Of a stretch of DNA of 64,000 nucleotides, positions 26,115-37,022 are shown in pieces. The stretch is from Candidatus Kaiserbacteria bacterium RIFCSPHIGHO2_01_FULL_53_31. GTDB lineage: Bacteria; Patescibacteriota; Minisyncoccia; Phycocordibacterales; Phycocordibacteraceae. Each line of letters opens with the position of its first letter. The first letter of the stretch is position 1. The stretch is taken from NCBI GenBank assembly GCA_001781095.1, contig MFKU01000005.1, positions 3,651 through 67,650 of the forward strand. Reading direction: 5' to 3'. Made by a program: the position numbers and the translations under genes. Under the pieces are notes generated by a model, which worked only from the letters and a program-made list of their open reading frames with translations, ran no database searches and was not told the DNA's origin.

Positions 26115-26381
26115 ATGAAACACGCAGAGATAAAGAGTAACAAGAAGGTAGCGAAAACGGCACGGGACGCAGTGCTGAACGTGGCAGATCGCGTTCAAAA
26201 CCTTAAAGAAAAGACATGGCGGGCGTGGGAAGAGTCAAAGCCGCGTCAACAAAAGATCAAGGAGAATTTGAGGGTAGCTGGCGAGAAGGTCGTCGCTTTC
26301 GGGAAAGACGTCGGCACGGGCTTCAAAGAAGGCATAGCTGAAGTCCAAAAAAGGAATAAGAAAAGAGGCGCTAGTGTTTAG
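26115..26381 (+). CDS. small lysine-rich helical hypothetical protein
   Basis: 88 aa, amphipathic/basic; no motif. Confidence 0.45.
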   Translation: MKHAEIKSNKKVAKTARDAVLNVADRVQNLKEKTWRAWEESKPRQQKIKENLRVAGEKVVAFGKDVGTGFKEGIAEVQKRNKKRGASV

Positions 26382-26439
26382 TTCTCTGGCGTGGGCAATC
26401 TGCCGGTGGGCAGGAAGTGTGTTCGAACCTGTACATGAA

Positions 26440-26473
26440 AAGACAAAGCCCCGGTTGAGGGACTTTGTCTTGG
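26440..26473 (-). terminator. hairpin (GACAAAGCCCC-ggttga-GGGACTTTGTC) + TTTTCATG on the minus strand
   Basis: Follows the minus-strand gene ending at 26492. Confidence 0.4.
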
Positions 26474-26491
26474 AACGAGACTGAGTCTTGC

Positions 26492-26737
26492 TTAGCCCTG
26501 GCAATCCGTATTCGAGTTGTTATAGCCCGTGGCTCCCACATCCTGACCGACTGCTCCGTCGTGATATCCCGGCGTTCCGCCCAACGCACCGAGCCATCCG
26601 AAATTACCATTTACATTGGCAAACGCACCATGAGTCGCACCACATGGAGCTGGGGCTGCAAATGCCGTAGCAGCCAACGAACCGAATAAAAGGGCACTTG
26701 CGCCCGCACCCAGAAGAACTTTCTTAAGTGTTCTCAT
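26492..26737 (-). CDS. small secreted Gly-rich peptide with two Cys
   Basis: Start at MRTLKKVLLGAGASALLFGSLAATAFA (Sec signal); the mature part is Gly-rich with Cys near both ends. Confidence 0.5.
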   Translation of the reverse strand: MRTLKKVLLGAGASALLFGSLAATAFAAPAPCGATHGAFANVNGNFGWLGALGGTPGYHDGAVGQDVGATGYNNSNTDCQG

Positions 26738-26869
26738 ATGTCGGTAAATATTATCGGTTAAGTTTTCAGTGTACACCTCGTGTCAGAAGCTATGATGAAG
26801 GAGGGGATGTGCGAGAGTAAAAATATAAAAAGAAAGCCCGCCCCCCGGCGCGAGACGAAAGGGTCGGCG

Positions 26870-27184
26870 CTAGGAGCGGGCCGCGAGCGCATACGGCATA
26901 AAGTAGTGTTCCATGTCCTCTAGGGTGCTGCCATATTCTGTCCCGCCAAGCACTGCATCAGAAAATACTTCCTTGGCGATGGCGAGCTCATCTAATCTGC
27001 CTTTCCACCGCTGGTCTCGTTGGGTGAGGTCAATAAGCATCAATGCTTGCTCGACTGCATGGTCAAAGCGCTGTGGGTCCTTGCCGTGCCACTTTGCCGC
27101 ACGACCAACCTCAGAGCCAATGTTGCCGAGTTGCTCCATGAGCGTGAATCTCGACCACGATTGTTGGATGCCGGAAACGGTCAT
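26870..27184 (-). CDS. possible MazG-like all-alpha NTP pyrophosphohydrolase
   Basis: LMEQLGNIGSEVGRAAKW resembles the MazG EExxE/GEL helix; weak. Confidence 0.35.
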   Translation of the reverse strand: MTVSGIQQSWSRFTLMEQLGNIGSEVGRAAKWHGKDPQRFDHAVEQALMLIDLTQRDQRWKGRLDELAIAKEVFSDAVLGGTEYGSTLEDMEHYFMPYALAARS

Positions 27185-27555
27185 GTCGATGACACACGCT
27201 TGTTCACAACCTCACGTATTGCTGCCTGTATGGCAAGATCCTCCACCGTTCTCGTTCGATTCCCGTACAGTGGTTTCAGGTTAACCATGGAATCAAATTC
27301 AATAAAGTCATTCCCAGTTTTGTCAAGCAGGAGATTAATTCCCCATGTGTCTTGGCGTTTCGAATCATGCTGCTCTATCAGAAGCTTTTCGATTTCAGAG
27401 TGGAACTCGCCACCAACCCCGATGATTCCTTGCGGCACGTCTACCACTGCCTTGATCGTGTCACCGTAGTACTCGTGCGCGAGCACTTTAAGCTCAGCGA
27501 GGCTGATGCGGTCAGTGACAATTCTGGTTTCTGCCATGGTCTCATTATCATACAC
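27181..27555 (-). CDS. hypothetical protein (124 aa), translationally coupled to the downstream gene
   Basis: Stop/start ATGA overlap with 26870..27184; no motif. Confidence 0.5.
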   Translation of the reverse strand: MYDNETMAETRIVTDRISLAELKVLAHEYYGDTIKAVVDVPQGIIGVGGEFHSEIEKLLIEQHDSKRQDTWGINLLLDKTGNDFIEFDSMVNLKPLYGNRTRTVEDLAIQAAIREVVNKRVSST

Positions 27556-27875
27556 TTTGTAGTAAAGTGCGAATCAACTGAGTATTCTGAAAGGAGGGAA
27601 AGGCGGAAAAAGGGACAGGCCCCATTGTTTAGGAATTTCCATGTTGTAATTCGGAAACAATGTACTAAAGAGGAAACCATTAGACCACACGAAAACCTAA
27701 AGAATGGTGACTGTCCCCATTATTCCATCACCCGCCATTACCCCGCTGGGTGCTTGCCCTTCGAAGTGCTTCACGAAGCAAGGGAGGATGTTCGAACCTT
27801 AATACAAAAAAGAAAGCCACCACTCCGATGAGGAAGCAGTAAGCTTTCCTTTATGAGTGGTGGGCTTGTTGTGTG

Positions 27876-28640
27876 TTATGCCAGGAGACCACGCTCGAGA
27901 CCATACCGAACTGCTTCGGCAGGATCCTTTCGTACCTTGTCCTCGAGCTGCCGTCGTACTCGGCGGACCTGTTCGGGAGGATACGCTTTACGGAGGATCA
28001 TCAGCAACGGTCGACGGGTGTAGCTCCTCCCGAAGTATTGACCCGTGAGTCCGTACTCTTTGCGGAGCTTACGCCGCTTTGTGCGAACGATCTCGTCCGC
28101 CTCTCGTTCGGCTCGCTTCTTTTCGGGCGGATCACCTTTCCAAATCCACCCGTAGGGGAGTGGCTCACTAAACTTCACCCAGACTGGAGTAAAGCGGACC
28201 CGATACACCCATCCGTTACAGGACAGGATGCGATTCGTGAGGGACTCGGTCAACTGAAATTGCGACACGAGTGAATCCCAAAGCGAATCGTCATCGACTC
28301 TCTCTTCAGGCAGCGGTGGAGGGTTGTCTGCATCGTACAGCATGAGATTCGCAACATGTTGCTCGATGAAGTTCTCTCTTTCGCGATATTGCGAGATGAT
28401 ATAGTGCCCTCCGTCGCGATCGGGTTTAGCCTCCCGTAGGAAGGGAATCTTGAGATCGAGCTTGTTCGCTTCGATCAAGTCGAGGATGGGCCTGATGCCG
28501 CCCCATCTGTCATGTCCCCAATGAGGCGCAAGACGCCAACCACTCAAGAGGCTGTCGCGGTGAGCATTGGCGACTCGCTCTGGTACGTATAGTACCCAGC
28601 CGCGGGTCCGTAATTGGTCAAAGAACTGTGTTTTGTTCAT
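27876..28640 (-). CDS. hypothetical protein (254 aa) with a basic C-terminal tail
   Basis: Start set at MNKTQFF with SD AAAGGGAGA; C-terminal KRAEREADEIVRTKRRKLRKEYG; no recognised family. Confidence 0.5.
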   Translation of the reverse strand: MNKTQFFDQLRTRGWVLYVPERVANAHRDSLLSGWRLAPHWGHDRWGGIRPILDLIEANKLDLKIPFLREAKPDRDGGHYIISQYRERENFIEQHVANLMLYDADNPPPLPEERVDDDSLWDSLVSQFQLTESLTNRILSCNGWVYRVRFTPVWVKFSEPLPYGWIWKGDPPEKKRAEREADEIVRTKRRKLRKEYGLTGQYFGRSYTRRPLLMILRKAYPPEQVRRVRRQLEDKVRKDPAEAVRYGLERGLLA

Positions 28641-28877
28641 ACATCTCCCTTTGCTGTGCTTTTGTCCTTTCGGACGCAGCATTGCAGGATCACGTGTGGT
28701 CACTGGTTCGTCCACACCAACCAAAGCTCTGGCGTCTTTATACCACACCAATCAAAATCTGTCAGCTCCGCTGGCTGCTGTGCCCGTCCGTAGTTTCTGA
28801 ACGGAGGAGGGGATGACCCGTCTTGTTGGAGCAAAGCCGAGGCGGATGTTCAAACCTGTTTTTGCTATACTTAAACC

Positions 28878-29126
28878 ATGAAGAATGACTGGATTGAAGT
28901 AGATAATACTCTACAAAAGACATTCGCGTTGAGTGATTTTAAAGAGGCGCTTGCGTTTACGAATATGGTCGGCGAAATTGCAGAGCGTCTCCAGCACCAC
29001 CCGGATATTTGCATCAAGGATTTCAACAAGGTATCCATTGCAACCTCGACACATGAGGAGGGTAACATCATAACAACAAAAGACAGAGATCTTGTCGATG
29101 CCATTGATAACCTCAATATTTCCTAG
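28878..29126 (+). CDS. pterin-4a-carbinolamine dehydratase (PCD/DCoH)
   Basis: ERLQHHPDICIKDFNKVSIATSTHE matches the PCD signature [E]-x-H-H-P-x5-[YW/F]...H-[DE]. Confidence 0.8.
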   Translation: MKNDWIEVDNTLQKTFALSDFKEALAFTNMVGEIAERLQHHPDICIKDFNKVSIATSTHEEGNIITTKDRDLVDAIDNLNIS

Positions 29127-29263
29127 CTCCGCTGGGTTGGTGATGTTCGAACCGTTTTTGTGTAGAAATAGGAAAGGCCTCACGTGCGAAGAGTGAGTCC
29201 GTGTGAGGACTAACCTATCGGCCGTGAAGTCTTGATGATTCGCACACAGATACTTGAAATGCT

Positions 29264-29683
29264 TTAGGCGTCGCCGATGTAATGAATCGAGAGACCGAGC
29301 AGATGAGAATTGGTCATGACAAGACGACCTACCGCTTCCTCTTGCGTCTTGCCGATTTCGCACGATTCTTCAGGAGCTCCTAATATGCGAGCGAGATGCA
29401 CAACGCGCTCGGGCTCAGCCTGAACTTCCTCAACAATTATTCGGTGCATGGCACAACCCCTTTCCATTGCGCACTCGACTGCCGGCGGTTGCGAAGGAAC
29501 ATCAGCAGAAATTTCTTCTTCAGTCACTGCCAGTTCGTCACAGTCGCATTTCCGCATGACGCGCCAGCAGACCTCGCCCGAGACACTGTTTTCTGCCCTG
29601 CGAAAATGGACCACACCACGGGCGCAGTAGTAATGGAAATAGTTTGCCCAACTACCGCCCGTTCTTACCAATCTTGCAATCAT
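29264..29683 (-). CDS. Cys-rich hypothetical protein (possible metal-binding)
   Basis: GGAGG SD 8 nt before ATG (MIARLV...); clusters YYCARG, KCDCDE, ECAMERGCAMH. Confidence 0.45.
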   Translation of the reverse strand: MIARLVRTGGSWANYFHYYCARGVVHFRRAENSVSGEVCWRVMRKCDCDELAVTEEEISADVPSQPPAVECAMERGCAMHRIIVEEVQAEPERVVHLARILGAPEESCEIGKTQEEAVGRLVMTNSHLLGLSIHYIGDA

Positions 29684-29785
29684 AGTGCGCCTCCTACGCA
29701 TCAATTCGCTTACTGCCGTTTTGGTCTGAGACAGATCAACGTACCACTTGCAGGATACACTGTATCTTTATATTGTCAACTTTTG

Positions 29786-30109
29786 CTCCGGGAGCAGGAC
29801 TCGAACCTGCAACCAACGCCTTACACTGATCCTAAAGTTTCCTAAAGGCGTGGACTATATCATCACCGTGTCTCGGTGCGAGGCGCTTCCTGGCCACAAC
29901 TTTTCAGCTGTTGGCGAGTACTCCCCGAAGGGATAGTCTCTGAACCTTCCCGCCAGCAATGCTATAGCATAGCTTTGGGCGGGCTTGGCTGCTGATTGTC
30001 CTCGGCGTTACCGTTAGGGTTTCCAGCAATTCACCTCGTTATTCAATCTCGAATTCCTTCGAGATGCTGCCATCGACAGGGCGCTGCTCTACCATTGAGC
30101 TATCCCGGA
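29786..30109 (-). tRNA. tRNA gene (most likely Asn-GUU; Thr-UGU is the alternative) interrupted in the anticodon loop by a ~252-nt group I intron
   Basis: Exon 1 UCCGGGAUAGCUCAAUGGUAGAGCAGCGCC-CUGU; exon 2 UAA-GGCGUUGGUUGCAGGUUCGAGUCCUGCUCCCGGA-G. U1-A72 plus G73 and the loop CUGUUAA match bacterial tRNA-Asn; CCA is not encoded. Confidence 0.75.
29824..30075 (-). ncRNA. group I self-splicing intron (IC3-like, tRNA-anticodon-loop type)
   Basis: The core matches cyanobacterial tRNA-Leu and Azoarcus tRNA-Ile introns: GGAAACC-UAA, CAGCCAAGCC, and the P7 strand CAGAGACUA with its partner AUAGUCC; ends in G; no ORF. Confidence 0.7.
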
Positions 30110-30174
30110 ATATTTTGAACCAAACACGCCCAAAAGGGCGTGAATGCATATTAACTCAAAATTCACGCCTCGCA

Positions 30175-33458: not shown

Positions 33459-34747
33459 GTTGATTCAATTTTCGCGCCGAGTTGCTGTAATCGATGCACG
33501 ATATCTTCGTAGCCGCGATTGATGCTGTAGACATTGCGGAGCATAGAGCGGCCTGTGGCCGCGAGCATTGCGACGAGAATGATCGTCGCAGGTCGAAGCG
33601 CCGGCGGACAGATGACCTCAGCGGCTTTCAGCTTCGTCGGGCCCTCTATCGAGATGCGGTGTGGATCATGCAGTATCGTCGTCGCGCCGAGGCGGTCGAG
33701 CTCGGTGTAATAAATAGCGCGCTTCTCATACACCCAATCATGAATCAAGGTTGTTCCTTTGGCCTTTGTTGCGATCACTGCAAAGAAGGGAAGATTATCG
33801 ATGTTCAAACCCGGGTATGGGCGTGCATGAATTTTCTCGGGGAAAGCGACCAACTCGGAAGGCTCAAGCGATATATCAACGAGTTTTGTGATTCCGTTTT
33901 CTGAAATACGATTATTAGAAATTAAAAACTGCAGTCCCATTTTCTCGAGCACGAGTAACTCAACTTCAAGAAATTCTATTGGTGCGGCAGAAATAGTTAT
34001 TTCTGAGCCAGTGACGGCCGCCGCAGCGATAAAAAACATCGCGTCAGTTGGATCCTCGGCGATGCTGTAACTAATGTCTCGATTAATTTCCTCGACGCCG
34101 TGGACGGTGAGCGTAGTCGAGCCAATGCCATCTATCTCGACACCGAGATCACGCAGAAAACCGCAGACTTCTTGGACTTGATAATTTGAGGACGCGTATT
34201 TAATGATACTTGTCCCGGGGATGTGTGCAGCTGCAAGAAGCGCATTAATTGTTGCGGTGTCGCTCGATTCGTAGAGGATAATCTCTGCCGGCTCGAGCCT
34301 GGTGTGTGAGATGTCGTAGGTGTTTGAATGCGCAGTAATCGAGACACCGAATTTCTCAAGTGCCATCAAGTGTGGACGTGCAGAACGGAGACCCAAGGTG
34401 CAACCACCCGACTGCGGCAGCTCAAATTTGTCAAAATGGTGGAGTAAGGGGCCGATGAACATCAAGATGCTGCGTGTCTTCATCGCAGCCTCGCTATTAA
34501 TAGAAGCGAGATCGATCTTGTCAGGTGTTTTGATCACAAGGGTGCAATCCTTCCACTCCACATTCACGCCAATTGACTGCAAAACCTCGATTAAGCGATT
34601 TACTTCTTCGATCTTTGGCACGTGTTCAAGGGTGGTTGTGCCGCGATTCAAAAGCGAGGCGGCGAGGAGGGCAACTGCGCCATTCTTGGAGCGGCTCGTC
34701 TCGACCTTCCCCGTGAGTTTACGGCCGCCCTCAATGACGAAATTCAT
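33455..34747 (-). CDS. murA: UDP-N-acetylglucosamine 1-carboxyvinyltransferase
   Basis: MNFVIEGGRKLTGKVETSRSKNGAVALLAA...; start at the Met preceded by AAGGAGAA. Confidence 0.9.
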   Translation of the reverse strand: MNFVIEGGRKLTGKVETSRSKNGAVALLAASLLNRGTTTLEHVPKIEEVNRLIEVLQSIGVNVEWKDCTLVIKTPDKIDLASINSEAAMKTRSILMFIGPLLHHFDKFELPQSGGCTLGLRSARPHLMALEKFGVSITAHSNTYDISHTRLEPAEIILYESSDTATINALLAAAHIPGTSIIKYASSNYQVQEVCGFLRDLGVEIDGIGSTTLTVHGVEEINRDISYSIAEDPTDAMFFIAAAAVTGSEITISAAPIEFLEVELLVLEKMGLQFLISNNRISENGITKLVDISLEPSELVAFPEKIHARPYPGLNIDNLPFFAVIATKAKGTTLIHDWVYEKRAIYYTELDRLGATTILHDPHRISIEGPTKLKAAEVICPPALRPATIILVAMLAATGRSMLRNVYSINRGYEDIVHRLQQLGAKIEST

Positions 34748-36249: not shown

Positions 36250-36394
36250 TGTTAACCCCCTTTCTTTTCTGCTAGTAGACTAACATATATAGACATCCTG
36301 TCAAATTCATTTCGCATATTCAAAATAATCACACTAAAGTAGTGAAAGGACTCCCAGCGAGACACCAGAAGTCCTTTAACGCACCCTGTGACGA

Positions 36395-36850
36395 CTAGTA
36401 CCGGATCGTCAGGCCGAGCCCGAAGACCGGCTTCGCGCCGCCTTTCTTGCCGATATCTAAATCGAGCGTGAGATTCGGCGTCACACGCCAGATGAGCGAC
36501 CCGACCGGCTTGAACATAAAGTTGTGTCGGCCATCGAGGCGCGGCCGGCCAGTGACCGACGGGTCGATGACGAACCTCACGTTCTTCACTCCCGGGAAGA
36601 GCGGTATGTCGGTTGGCAATCGAAGGCGCAGTCGCATGAATTCGTGTCTGCGTTCGCGCGCCCAGTAACCGAGATCGAGCGTCGCCTCCGACAGGAATCC
36701 GGGATGGCGGGCGAGCATTTCCTCAGCGCTCTCGAGCACGCGCTCCGTGGTAATTTTCCCCGGGTGTTCCTCATCTGCAATCGCTGCGCTCGTCACGAAC
36801 GCAGCAAGTATGACGGTAATGAAAAGATCAAACTCCCTACGTCCGCGCAT
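36395..36850 (-). CDS. secreted beta-rich hypothetical protein ending in an aromatic residue
   Basis: Signal peptide; ends ...GLGLTIRY. Confidence 0.5.
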   Translation of the reverse strand: MRGRREFDLFITVILAAFVTSAAIADEEHPGKITTERVLESAEEMLARHPGFLSEATLDLGYWARERRHEFMRLRLRLPTDIPLFPGVKNVRFVIDPSVTGRPRLDGRHNFMFKPVGSLIWRVTPNLTLDLDIGKKGGAKPVFGLGLTIRY

Positions 36851-37022
36851 GGCGGCCTCCTTTCATAGAACGATGCGATCTCGTAGTGAAGTCTTTCCAC
36901 GAGCAATTATAGGACGACTAGCCCACGTCGTCAAATACATAAAACTAATAACCTCAGTTGCAGGAGGATACAGAAAAGGCTCCCGGCGAAACGCCAGGAG
37001 CCCTCATCTGCTTTCAACCGGG

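Follow-up and report, generated by a model that had tools for sequence, protein, structure and literature searches.

Repeats downstream of a tRNA-Asn gene suggest an integron-like gene-capture array in ultra-small Kaiserbacteria

Bacteria of the candidate phyla radiation have tiny genomes, and their exchange of accessory genes is poorly understood. Among the described systems closest to the locus reported here, serine integrases act on attachment sites of 40-50 bp, built from two inverted half-sites around a central dinucleotide, and integrons use attC sites, in which an inverse core RYYYAAC pairs with a core GTTRRRY in the folded strand. In tycheposons and similar islands, repeated integration at one tRNA gene pushes older elements outward and leaves partial tRNAs in the island (bioRxiv 10.1101/2020.12.28.424599; PMC4383910); tyrosine recombinases occur in 910 of 937 tycheposon-type elements (bioRxiv 10.1101/2020.12.28.424599). 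We analyzed a stretch of 64,000 nucleotides from Candidatus Kaiserbacteria bacterium RIFCSPHIGHO2_01_FULL_53_31 (contig MFKU01000005.1; hereafter the window), in which four copies of a repeat, C1 to C4, lie 3' of a tRNA-Asn(GTT) gene. We consider it likely that these repeats are junction sites in an array of gene cassettes whose anchor is the tRNA 3' end, with cassettes that are moved probably by a large serine recombinase (LSR). The locus suggests that the small gene cassettes bounded by the motif were acquired independently, forming an integron-like gene-capture array in ultra-small Kaiserbacteria.

The repeat family and the tRNA-Asn 3' end

All four copies are on the plus strand, where a sequence-only reading of the window had placed them, and they differ in preservation. 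C4 (29126-29155, core 29127-29153; CTCCGCTGGGTTGGTGATGTTCGAACC), the copy nearest to the tRNA, has the canonical short form G-CTCCGCTGG-GTTGGT-GATGTTCGAACC-G; it scores 29-32 bits against the family profiles (nhmmer) and agrees with the consensus of the 93 distinct copies described below. C3 (28765-28858, arms 28766-28856; CTCCGCTGG + 71 nt + ATGTTCAAACC) and C2 (27740-27800, arms 27741-27798; CCCCGCTGG + 38 nt + ATGTTCGAACC) are long forms that keep two arms. In C3 the 3' arm is GATGTTCAAACC and the long insert stands in place of the linker; in C2 the linker contains a hairpin-forming insert of ~31 nt and the 3' part scores 18 bits in the profile search. C1 (26401-26431; CTGCCGGTGGGCAGGAAGTGTGTTCGAACC) is a degenerate distal copy (CTGCCGGTGG...GTGTGTTCGAACC) of which only the 3' arm scores, at 8-10 bits; it is the probable outer end of the array, and no more copies were found to its left in the window. 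Only C4 is intact here, C2 and C3 being interrupted by linker insertions and C1 decayed. The modular form with inserts of 2 to 60 nt proposed by the sequence-only reading thus fits the window (38 nt in C2, 71 nt in C3, compact in C4) but is atypical of the repeat elsewhere, where the linker measures 6-7 nt.

The repeat clearly exceeds its compositional expectation. GTTCRAACC has five matches in the window, all on the plus strand and four of them intergenic within 2.7 kb, against an expectation of 0.78, and none of 100 shuffles reached five; for the gapped pattern CCGCTGG-N(1-30)-GTTCRAACC, the expectation in the window is 0.00. Because the match counts exceed expectation and that of the gapped pattern is zero, we regard the repeat as real and non-random. 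On its own, the 5' segment (CTCCGCTGG, ≤1 mismatch) shows no enrichment in the window (11 seen, 15 expected) and is significant only together with the 3' core. The remaining GTTCRAACC match (33803) belongs to a copy of the 12-mer GATGTTCAAACC in murA (33800-33811), which is part of the coding sequence, reads on the strand opposite murA and has no 5' arm. It is best explained as chance, and the caution initially attached to it was appropriate.

The array begins at the 3' end (29785) of the tRNA-Asn(GTT) gene, which occupies 29785-30109 on the minus strand and offers an attB-like anchor at ~29785. Default ARAGORN misses this intron-bearing tRNA, and the intron option, which finds it, labels it Thr(tgt); its exons agree with the tRNA-Asn(GTT) at the syntenic position in relatives, and on the basis of this comparison we assign it to tRNA-Asn(GTT). 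A group I intron (Rfam Intron_gpI, 29831-30153, minus strand, 67 bits) sits in the anticodon loop. We collected 80 species-level relatives via Fmt, all of them Kaiserbacteria/Paceibacteria, and the same tRNA is intron-split in ~11 of these species. One further contig (L006, position 11018) is 99.9% identical to the window up to 29895, inside the intron, and continues in unrelated sequence with an aldose epimerase gene, which reflects either an assembly chimera at the repeated intron or a rearrangement.

The 93 distinct copies from Kaiserbacteria/Paceibacteria genomes and metagenomes have nearly invariant arms and flanks almost without information, and the motif is conserved across genomes that differ greatly in base composition. 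Its consensus on the plus strand of the window is G-CTCCGCTGG-GTRGAG-GATGTTCGAACC-T, 29 bases with a 6-nt linker, which on the tRNA strand corresponds to GGTTCGAAC-ATC-N6-CCAGCGGAGC. In sequence the linker varies in part (among its forms are GTGGAG, GTAGAG, GTGAAG and GTAGGG), and its length is fixed at 6-7 nt in 40 of the distinct copies elsewhere that match at ≤1 substitution per arm; long forms are rare. The compact form GCTCCGCTGG-ATAGAG-GATGTTCGAACCT recurs in loci of other Kaiserbacteria species (L057, L077, L026, L044, L038, L082, L078, L030).

Scanning metagenome contigs with the exact pattern CYCCGCTRG-N6-RATGTTCGAACC yielded 67 copies in 57 loci, where by our rough estimate a handful would be expected by chance; the same scan of viral contigs gave no match. 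A profile built from the metagenome copies produced 122 matches, arrays among them. L142 holds 10 copies of ≥20 bits in 10 kb, directly past tRNA-Asn, L134 has six profile matches (five of ≥20 bits) beside the fmt/def/S30AE synteny known from the window, and L099 has five copies on one strand. More than one copy is found in 19 loci, at spacings of 384-5376 bp, and in none of these are the strands mixed. The cargo is miscellaneous across arrays and includes cupin, SOUL, NUDIX, HAD and membrane proteins as well as unknowns.

The motif profile also matches, weakly, the reverse complement of the syntenic tRNA-Asn 3' end in ~25 loci. Read on the tRNA strand, the motif arm is GGTTCGAAC-ATCCTCTATCCA-GCGGAGC (28 nt: GGTTCGAAC, 12 nt and GCGGAGC) and the tRNA arm is GGTTCGAAT-CCTACCC-GCGGAGC (23 nt: GGTTCGAAT, 7 nt and GCGGAGC). 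Both contain an outer block (T-loop, GGTTCGAAT) and an inner block (acceptor 3' strand CCGCGGAGC plus discriminator), between which the motif has 5 extra bases. It is a direct repeat homologous to the last 23 nt of the tRNA, with 5 extra nucleotides and substitutions, and since this form is kept across species, it is not a simple displaced tRNA fragment. In the 19 loci that hold both, window included, every one of the 34 copies of ≥20 bits is found on the 3' side of tRNA-Asn and in the same orientation. From the proximity of the tRNA and the direct repeats, the sequence-only reading had considered remnants of an integrated element; this was essentially right but understated, as the repeats share homology with the tRNA-Asn 3' end and represent a conserved and widespread junction site.

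Probable cassette junctions and the candidate recombinase

The left flank of the motif is a plus-strand terminator or a minus-strand promoter and the right flank usually a minus-strand terminator, so that the motif separates self-contained gene modules. When the metagenome loci were compared all-vs-all (megablast), 31 of 116 internal alignment ends fell within 15 nt of a motif. Among pairs of copies, 11 share the right flank only and 8 the left flank only, with divergence beginning at the motif edges, and L117 differs from L145 by the gain or loss of one cassette. The tRNA end is empty in L094, L044, L042 and L053, where ...CGGAGC| is followed by TAGAAAAAGTTAGG / TAGAAAAAGTTAGGCCC...; the occupied end in L057 has a 446-bp insertion, comprising a promoter, an open reading frame of 108 aa and a terminator, which ends in the motif (...CCAGCGGAGC|) and is followed by the same flank. 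Comparison of empty and occupied ends, like the one-cassette difference between L117 and L145, places the crossover at the final tRNA bases, within CGGAG(C) or adjacent to it, and because the L057 insertion ends with the motif, the motif marks the distal end of an inserted cassette. The linker accompanies the right-hand flank more often than the left, which agrees with a crossover at CGGAG(C) but does not fix it.

A cassette would thus usually consist of one to three genes with their own promoter and terminator, and carry the site at its tRNA-distal end. Cassettes would enter and leave via a crossover within the shared CGGAG(C) or beside it; with the crossover at the very end of the tRNA, the tRNA would stay intact and older cassettes would be pushed outward.

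The enzyme is probably an LSR of the family that many relatives carry next to this tRNA. In 11 of the 80 relatives, an LSR gene on the opposite strand borders the tRNA-Asn 3' end or overlaps it, and the same arrangement is seen in four more homologues that were retrieved separately (L156-L159); other LSRs abut the ends of tRNA-Leu and tRNA-Arg likewise. The LSR of L077 (12198-13799), which has Resolvase, Recombinase and Zn_ribbon_recom domains, lies in an island of 6.5 kb that extends from tRNA-Asn to a perfect motif next to truB. In serine integrases, the distal (zinc-ribbon) recognition block of attB is 5 bp nearer to the crossover than that of attP (PMC3783163), and the 28-nt motif differs from the 23-nt tRNA end by exactly this shift. 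The motif would then serve as a half-site of attP type (P) and the tRNA end as one of attB type (B), and cassettes without a recombinase would be moved in trans. In L155, beside an 87%-identical LSR, a 28-nt P-type arm is joined to the LSR-proximal arm in what looks like an intact attP. An inverted GGTTCGAAC partner accompanies 19 of 83 copies, on one side only and at 24, 60-63 or 72-74 nt; the 24-nt class forms quasi-palindromes of ~51 bp (L106, L151), and at LSR-bearing junctions GGTTCGAAC lies 60-62 nt beyond the tRNA end.

The LSR genes associated with tRNA-Asn also contain two perfect GGTTCGAACC palindromes in their 3' coding region (L077 12270-12279 and 12375-12384), ~61 and ~165 nt from the tRNA end, with equivalent positions in L155, L157, L158 and L159. 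Their conservation among proteins that are only ~60% identical suggests a role at the DNA level.

Several points weigh against the movement of cassettes by LSRs. No recombinase gene was found in the window, an LSR is absent from 56 of the 57 metagenome loci (only L101 has an LSR fragment), and just one LSR island, that of L077, was traced to a motif-bearing far end, ten others extending past the fetched DNA. Most copies are without a recognizable second half-site by the presumed crossover, and the inverted partner, where present, is usually set off by 36-50 nt that contain a hairpin. The LSR elements at tRNA-Arg (L013) and tRNA-Leu (L011) have pseudo-tRNA far ends that break the +5 spacing. 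Canonical serine integrases are not known to recombine attP with attL, which puts repeated insertion at an occupied tRNA end outside the textbook mechanism. Further, the crossover is located only approximately, because the linker does not segregate cleanly with one flank, homologous recombination at a conserved 29-bp block could also give the shuffling, and no cassette protein of the window was found in another array. On account of these points, we take an LSR to be only the most likely enzyme, whereas the reading of the repeats as junction sites is well supported.

In its full form, the model would describe an as yet undescribed integron-like platform of Kaiserbacteria and related Paceibacteria: the tRNA-Asn 3' end would serve as the entry point, the 29-bp attP-spaced mimic as the site, and LSRs acting in trans from co-resident elements would insert and excise promoter-bearing single-gene cassettes, building arrays of at least 10. 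We consider this extended version possible, at somewhat less than even chances. It would imply, if true, that serine integrases work more than once at a site already occupied and use sites in which essentially a single half-site is conserved.

Homologous recombination, which may follow the uptake of DNA, would likewise put its breakpoints at the conserved block, and the repeats could then be passive relics, decaying duplicates of the tRNA 3' end left by old integrations and shuffled with no dedicated recombinase today. The lack of a recombinase in the window and in most arrays fits such an origin, as does the degenerate or interrupted state of C1-C3. Neutral relics should, however, resemble the local tRNA and decay, whereas the motif copies no observed tRNA-Asn variant and has a distinct +5 nt form with near-invariant arms, a variable linker and unrelated flanks. 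The perfect copy that ends the LSR island of L077 and the 28-nt architecture shared by the attP-like site of L155 also speak against passive duplication, which we consider unlikely.

Small cassettes arrayed in one orientation are also what a tyrosine recombinase of the integron type would produce. It would act on folded single strands, with the motif and its inverted partner as an attC-like site and the tRNA end as attI. Where the GGTTCGAAC partner stands 60-74 nt off, in 19 of the 83 copies, the two enclose a hairpin and form an attC-like imperfect palindrome, and C2 and C3 have central parts of variable length. Yet the partner is missing in most copies, the L057 cassette has neither hairpin nor partner, GTTCGAA misfits the attC core GTTRRRY (C at the first R), and cassettes with their own promoters and terminators are unlike typical integron cassettes. 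A tblastn search with an XerD sequence (E < 0.01) that covered the window and all loci (~1.8 Mb by our estimate) detected no XerD-like gene; this is a weak test. A mechanism of this kind appears quite improbable to us.

The sequence-only reading had favored the binding site of a dimeric protein and a local regulon. A dimeric transcription factor on the GTTCGAAC core would co-regulate the flanking genes, a notion to which the intergenic position of the copies and the location of C3 20 nt upstream of the start codon for pterin-4a-carbinolamine dehydratase (PCD) lend themselves. The palindromic core does exist, but it comprises only the 8 bp of GTTCGAAC and is broken in C3, and beyond it the conserved unit of 29 nt is asymmetric. 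Its orientation is fixed whatever the direction of the genes, it is typically located between terminators and not at a fixed promoter distance, and the neighboring genes are unrelated from genome to genome. As the link to the tRNA-Asn 3' end has no regulatory rationale either, we abandon the regulon as very improbable.

A structured RNA transcribed from one strand, such as a riboswitch, a small RNA, a processing signal or a tRNA-like 3' module, would match the resemblance to tRNA, the hairpin-forming central insert of variable length and the small hairpins possible in C1 (CTGCC/GGCAG) and C2 (TACCC/GGGTG). It is hardly credible given that searches of the whole window and of 26300-29300 gave no Rfam match at the gathering threshold or at E up to 10, that fold z-scores for each copy on both strands are unremarkable except for terminators, and that the 93 copies show invariant arms without covariation and a linker without complementary changes. 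Moreover, the site is probably not transcribed, since it is usually bracketed by terminators on both sides. We also rejected a dif/Xer terminus site (no GC-skew switch at 26-29 kb, arms that are not inverted repeats, no Xer-like gene found), a sigma-70, sigma-54 or extracytoplasmic function (ECF) promoter (the spacings misfit, and TATAAAAAG, which recurs on the right-hand side of the motif, belongs to a minus-strand terminator as its T-run) and a mini-ORF ATG TTC GAA CC (MFEP), as conservation is at the nucleotide level, third codon positions included.

Proposed cassettes of the window and accompanying elements

With the repeats as cassette junction sites, the window holds four cassettes, arranged from the tRNA outward as tRNA, 139-aa gene, C4, PCD gene, C3, 254-aa gene, C2, genes for a DUF5674 protein, a 104-aa protein and a Gly-rich peptide, and C1. 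Cassette 1 (29156-29784, minus strand) encodes a Cys-rich protein of 139 aa (29264-29683) without a Pfam, PHROG or NCBIfam match; it has a TTGACA promoter of its own directly past the tRNA end and a terminator-like hairpin adjoining C4. Cassette 2 (28878-29126, plus strand) is the PCD gene (Pfam Pterin_4a, E = 8.5e-19), which starts 20 nt past C3, has an extended -10-like TGcTATACT upstream and overlaps the C4 flank with its stop codon. The 254-aa gene (27876-28640) makes up cassette 3 (27801-28764, minus strand) together with a promoter of its own, a structured 5' leader that is conserved, and a terminator (27805-27875); the -35 element (TTGATT) of the minus-strand promoter that serves this gene adjoins the 5' arm of C3. 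Cassette 4 (26432-27739, minus strand) comprises the DUF5674 gene (27181-27537; Pfam E = 4.6e-23), the 104-aa gene (26870-27184) and the Gly-rich peptide gene (26492-26740), followed by a terminator (26441-26472; fold z = -5.1 for the terminator region). Pfam names just DUF5674 and Pterin_4a among the seven neighboring open reading frames, for which PHROGs and NCBIfam gave nothing further.

The farther a copy in the window lies from the tRNA, the poorer its site quality, which is what an array with its newest cassette beside the tRNA would show. Since only C4 is intact, the window array is probably largely fossil. The window is 99.9% identical to GCA_001781835.1 (record MFMP01000044.1), and the arrangement of the array is common to ten near-identical strain contigs (L001-L010, 99.9% identical), so that the array is not visibly active in this population; at such identity the strain-level comparison is uninformative. 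A segment of 600 bp outside the array (36375-36975) is present in the window and L002 and absent from L003 and L004, and at the junction ~30 bp are common to both blast alignments, indicating an indel between strains with a short repeat at its borders.

Among 5.8 billion sequences, the 254-aa protein has no more than 12 homologues, every one of them non-syntenic. Two, at tRNA-Leu (L011) and tRNA-Arg (L013), belong to small elements and are neighbors of large serine recombinases, and in L016/L017 a homologue is inserted between pilM and pilN/O with a 13-bp direct repeat (AGGATTAAGAGTT) on both sides. The cassette repeat motif is absent next to these homologues, which occupy other contexts. An AlphaFold model of the protein (predicted local distance difference test score, pLDDT, of 80.6) had no significant fold match in the PDB. 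Upstream of this gene family lies a conserved 5' leader of ~90 nt (window 28641-28745, minus strand; L011 5472-5582; L013 and L015 7890-8000; L016 5488-5598). Its hairpin, GGYTGGYGTGG...CCACRC, shows a compensatory C-G/U-A change, and next comes CGTCCGAAAGGACAAAGGCAC.GCAAAGGAG, which runs into the Shine-Dalgarno sequence. The leader has no Rfam match and may be a cis-regulatory RNA.

Two further elements accompany the tRNA-Asn 3' end in relatives. A conserved non-coding element of ~195 nt stands directly past tRNA-Asn or a motif (L094 13252-13445; L044 11993-12180; L042, L053, L057 6944-7130). It starts with a hairpin that resembles a bidirectional terminator and with the tRNA 3' end in inverted orientation, finishes with a direct repeat of the last 15-17 nt of the tRNA, and has no Rfam match. 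In L100, L081, L067, L078, L126 and L089, an inverted copy of the tRNA 3' end, CTCCGCGG-[20-nt hairpin]-GTGTAGGATTCGAAG, lies past the tRNA terminator, 40-90 nt after tRNA-Asn; its hairpin occupies the same linker position as the insertions in C2 and C3.

Comparison with known systems

As in Islander-type islands and Prochlorococcus tycheposons, integration takes place 3' of a tRNA, the tRNA is kept intact and a tRNA-derived repeat is found at the distal end. In contrast to these islands, the units measure 0.4-2 kb, often hold one gene and are almost all without an integrase, the arrays reach at least 10 units, and the repeat is a conserved mimic of 28-29 nt with 5 extra bases instead of a displaced tRNA fragment. 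The recombinases associated with it are large serine enzymes, and not tyrosine recombinases as in tycheposons. An integrase within the island, which Islander requires, is lacking in the window (no LSR, no XerD-like gene) and present in relatives such as L077.

With integrons (attI, attC, IntI), the system shares a fixed entry point and an array, in one orientation, of small, miscellaneous and mostly uncharacterized cassettes. Each cassette ends in a conserved recombination site whose central part can vary, and content differs between close strains. Unlike in integrons, the entry point is the end of a tRNA gene, cassettes have their own promoters and terminators and may point in either direction, no IntI or other tyrosine recombinase was seen (by the weak tblastn test), and the site misfits the attC consensus and its obligatory hairpin.

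The att sites of serine integrases (LI/A118, Bxb1, phiC31) resemble the motif in having two recognition blocks per half-site, with the distal block 5 bp further out in the element-borne site (28 nt in the motif, 23 nt in the tRNA; PMC3783163), and the ~51-bp quasi-palindromes of L106 and L151, the attP-like site of L155 and the LSR genes at the junction add to this likeness. They differ in that most copies here are one conserved half-site, often with a hairpin-containing spacer before the inverted partner. The known serine-integrase repertoire likewise includes neither cassettes that lack a recombinase nor the repeated insertion, proposed here, where a site is already occupied.

If serine recombinases serve the array, it would be a natural use, with multiple cassettes and repeated insertion, of enzymes otherwise known as strictly one-shot (attP x attB), and would bear on the rules of integrase directionality and on genome engineering with these enzymes. 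A compact array at one tRNA gene, present in dozens of species and in metagenomes, would be a main site of strain-level variation in gene content, and the 29-nt site provides a simple annotation marker that delimits horizontally acquired cassettes in these genomes. Our literature searches found no description of this cassette system. It differs from known systems in its miniature cassettes without recombinases, its dedicated, conserved and attP-spaced tRNA mimic, its long arrays and its hosts in the candidate phyla radiation.

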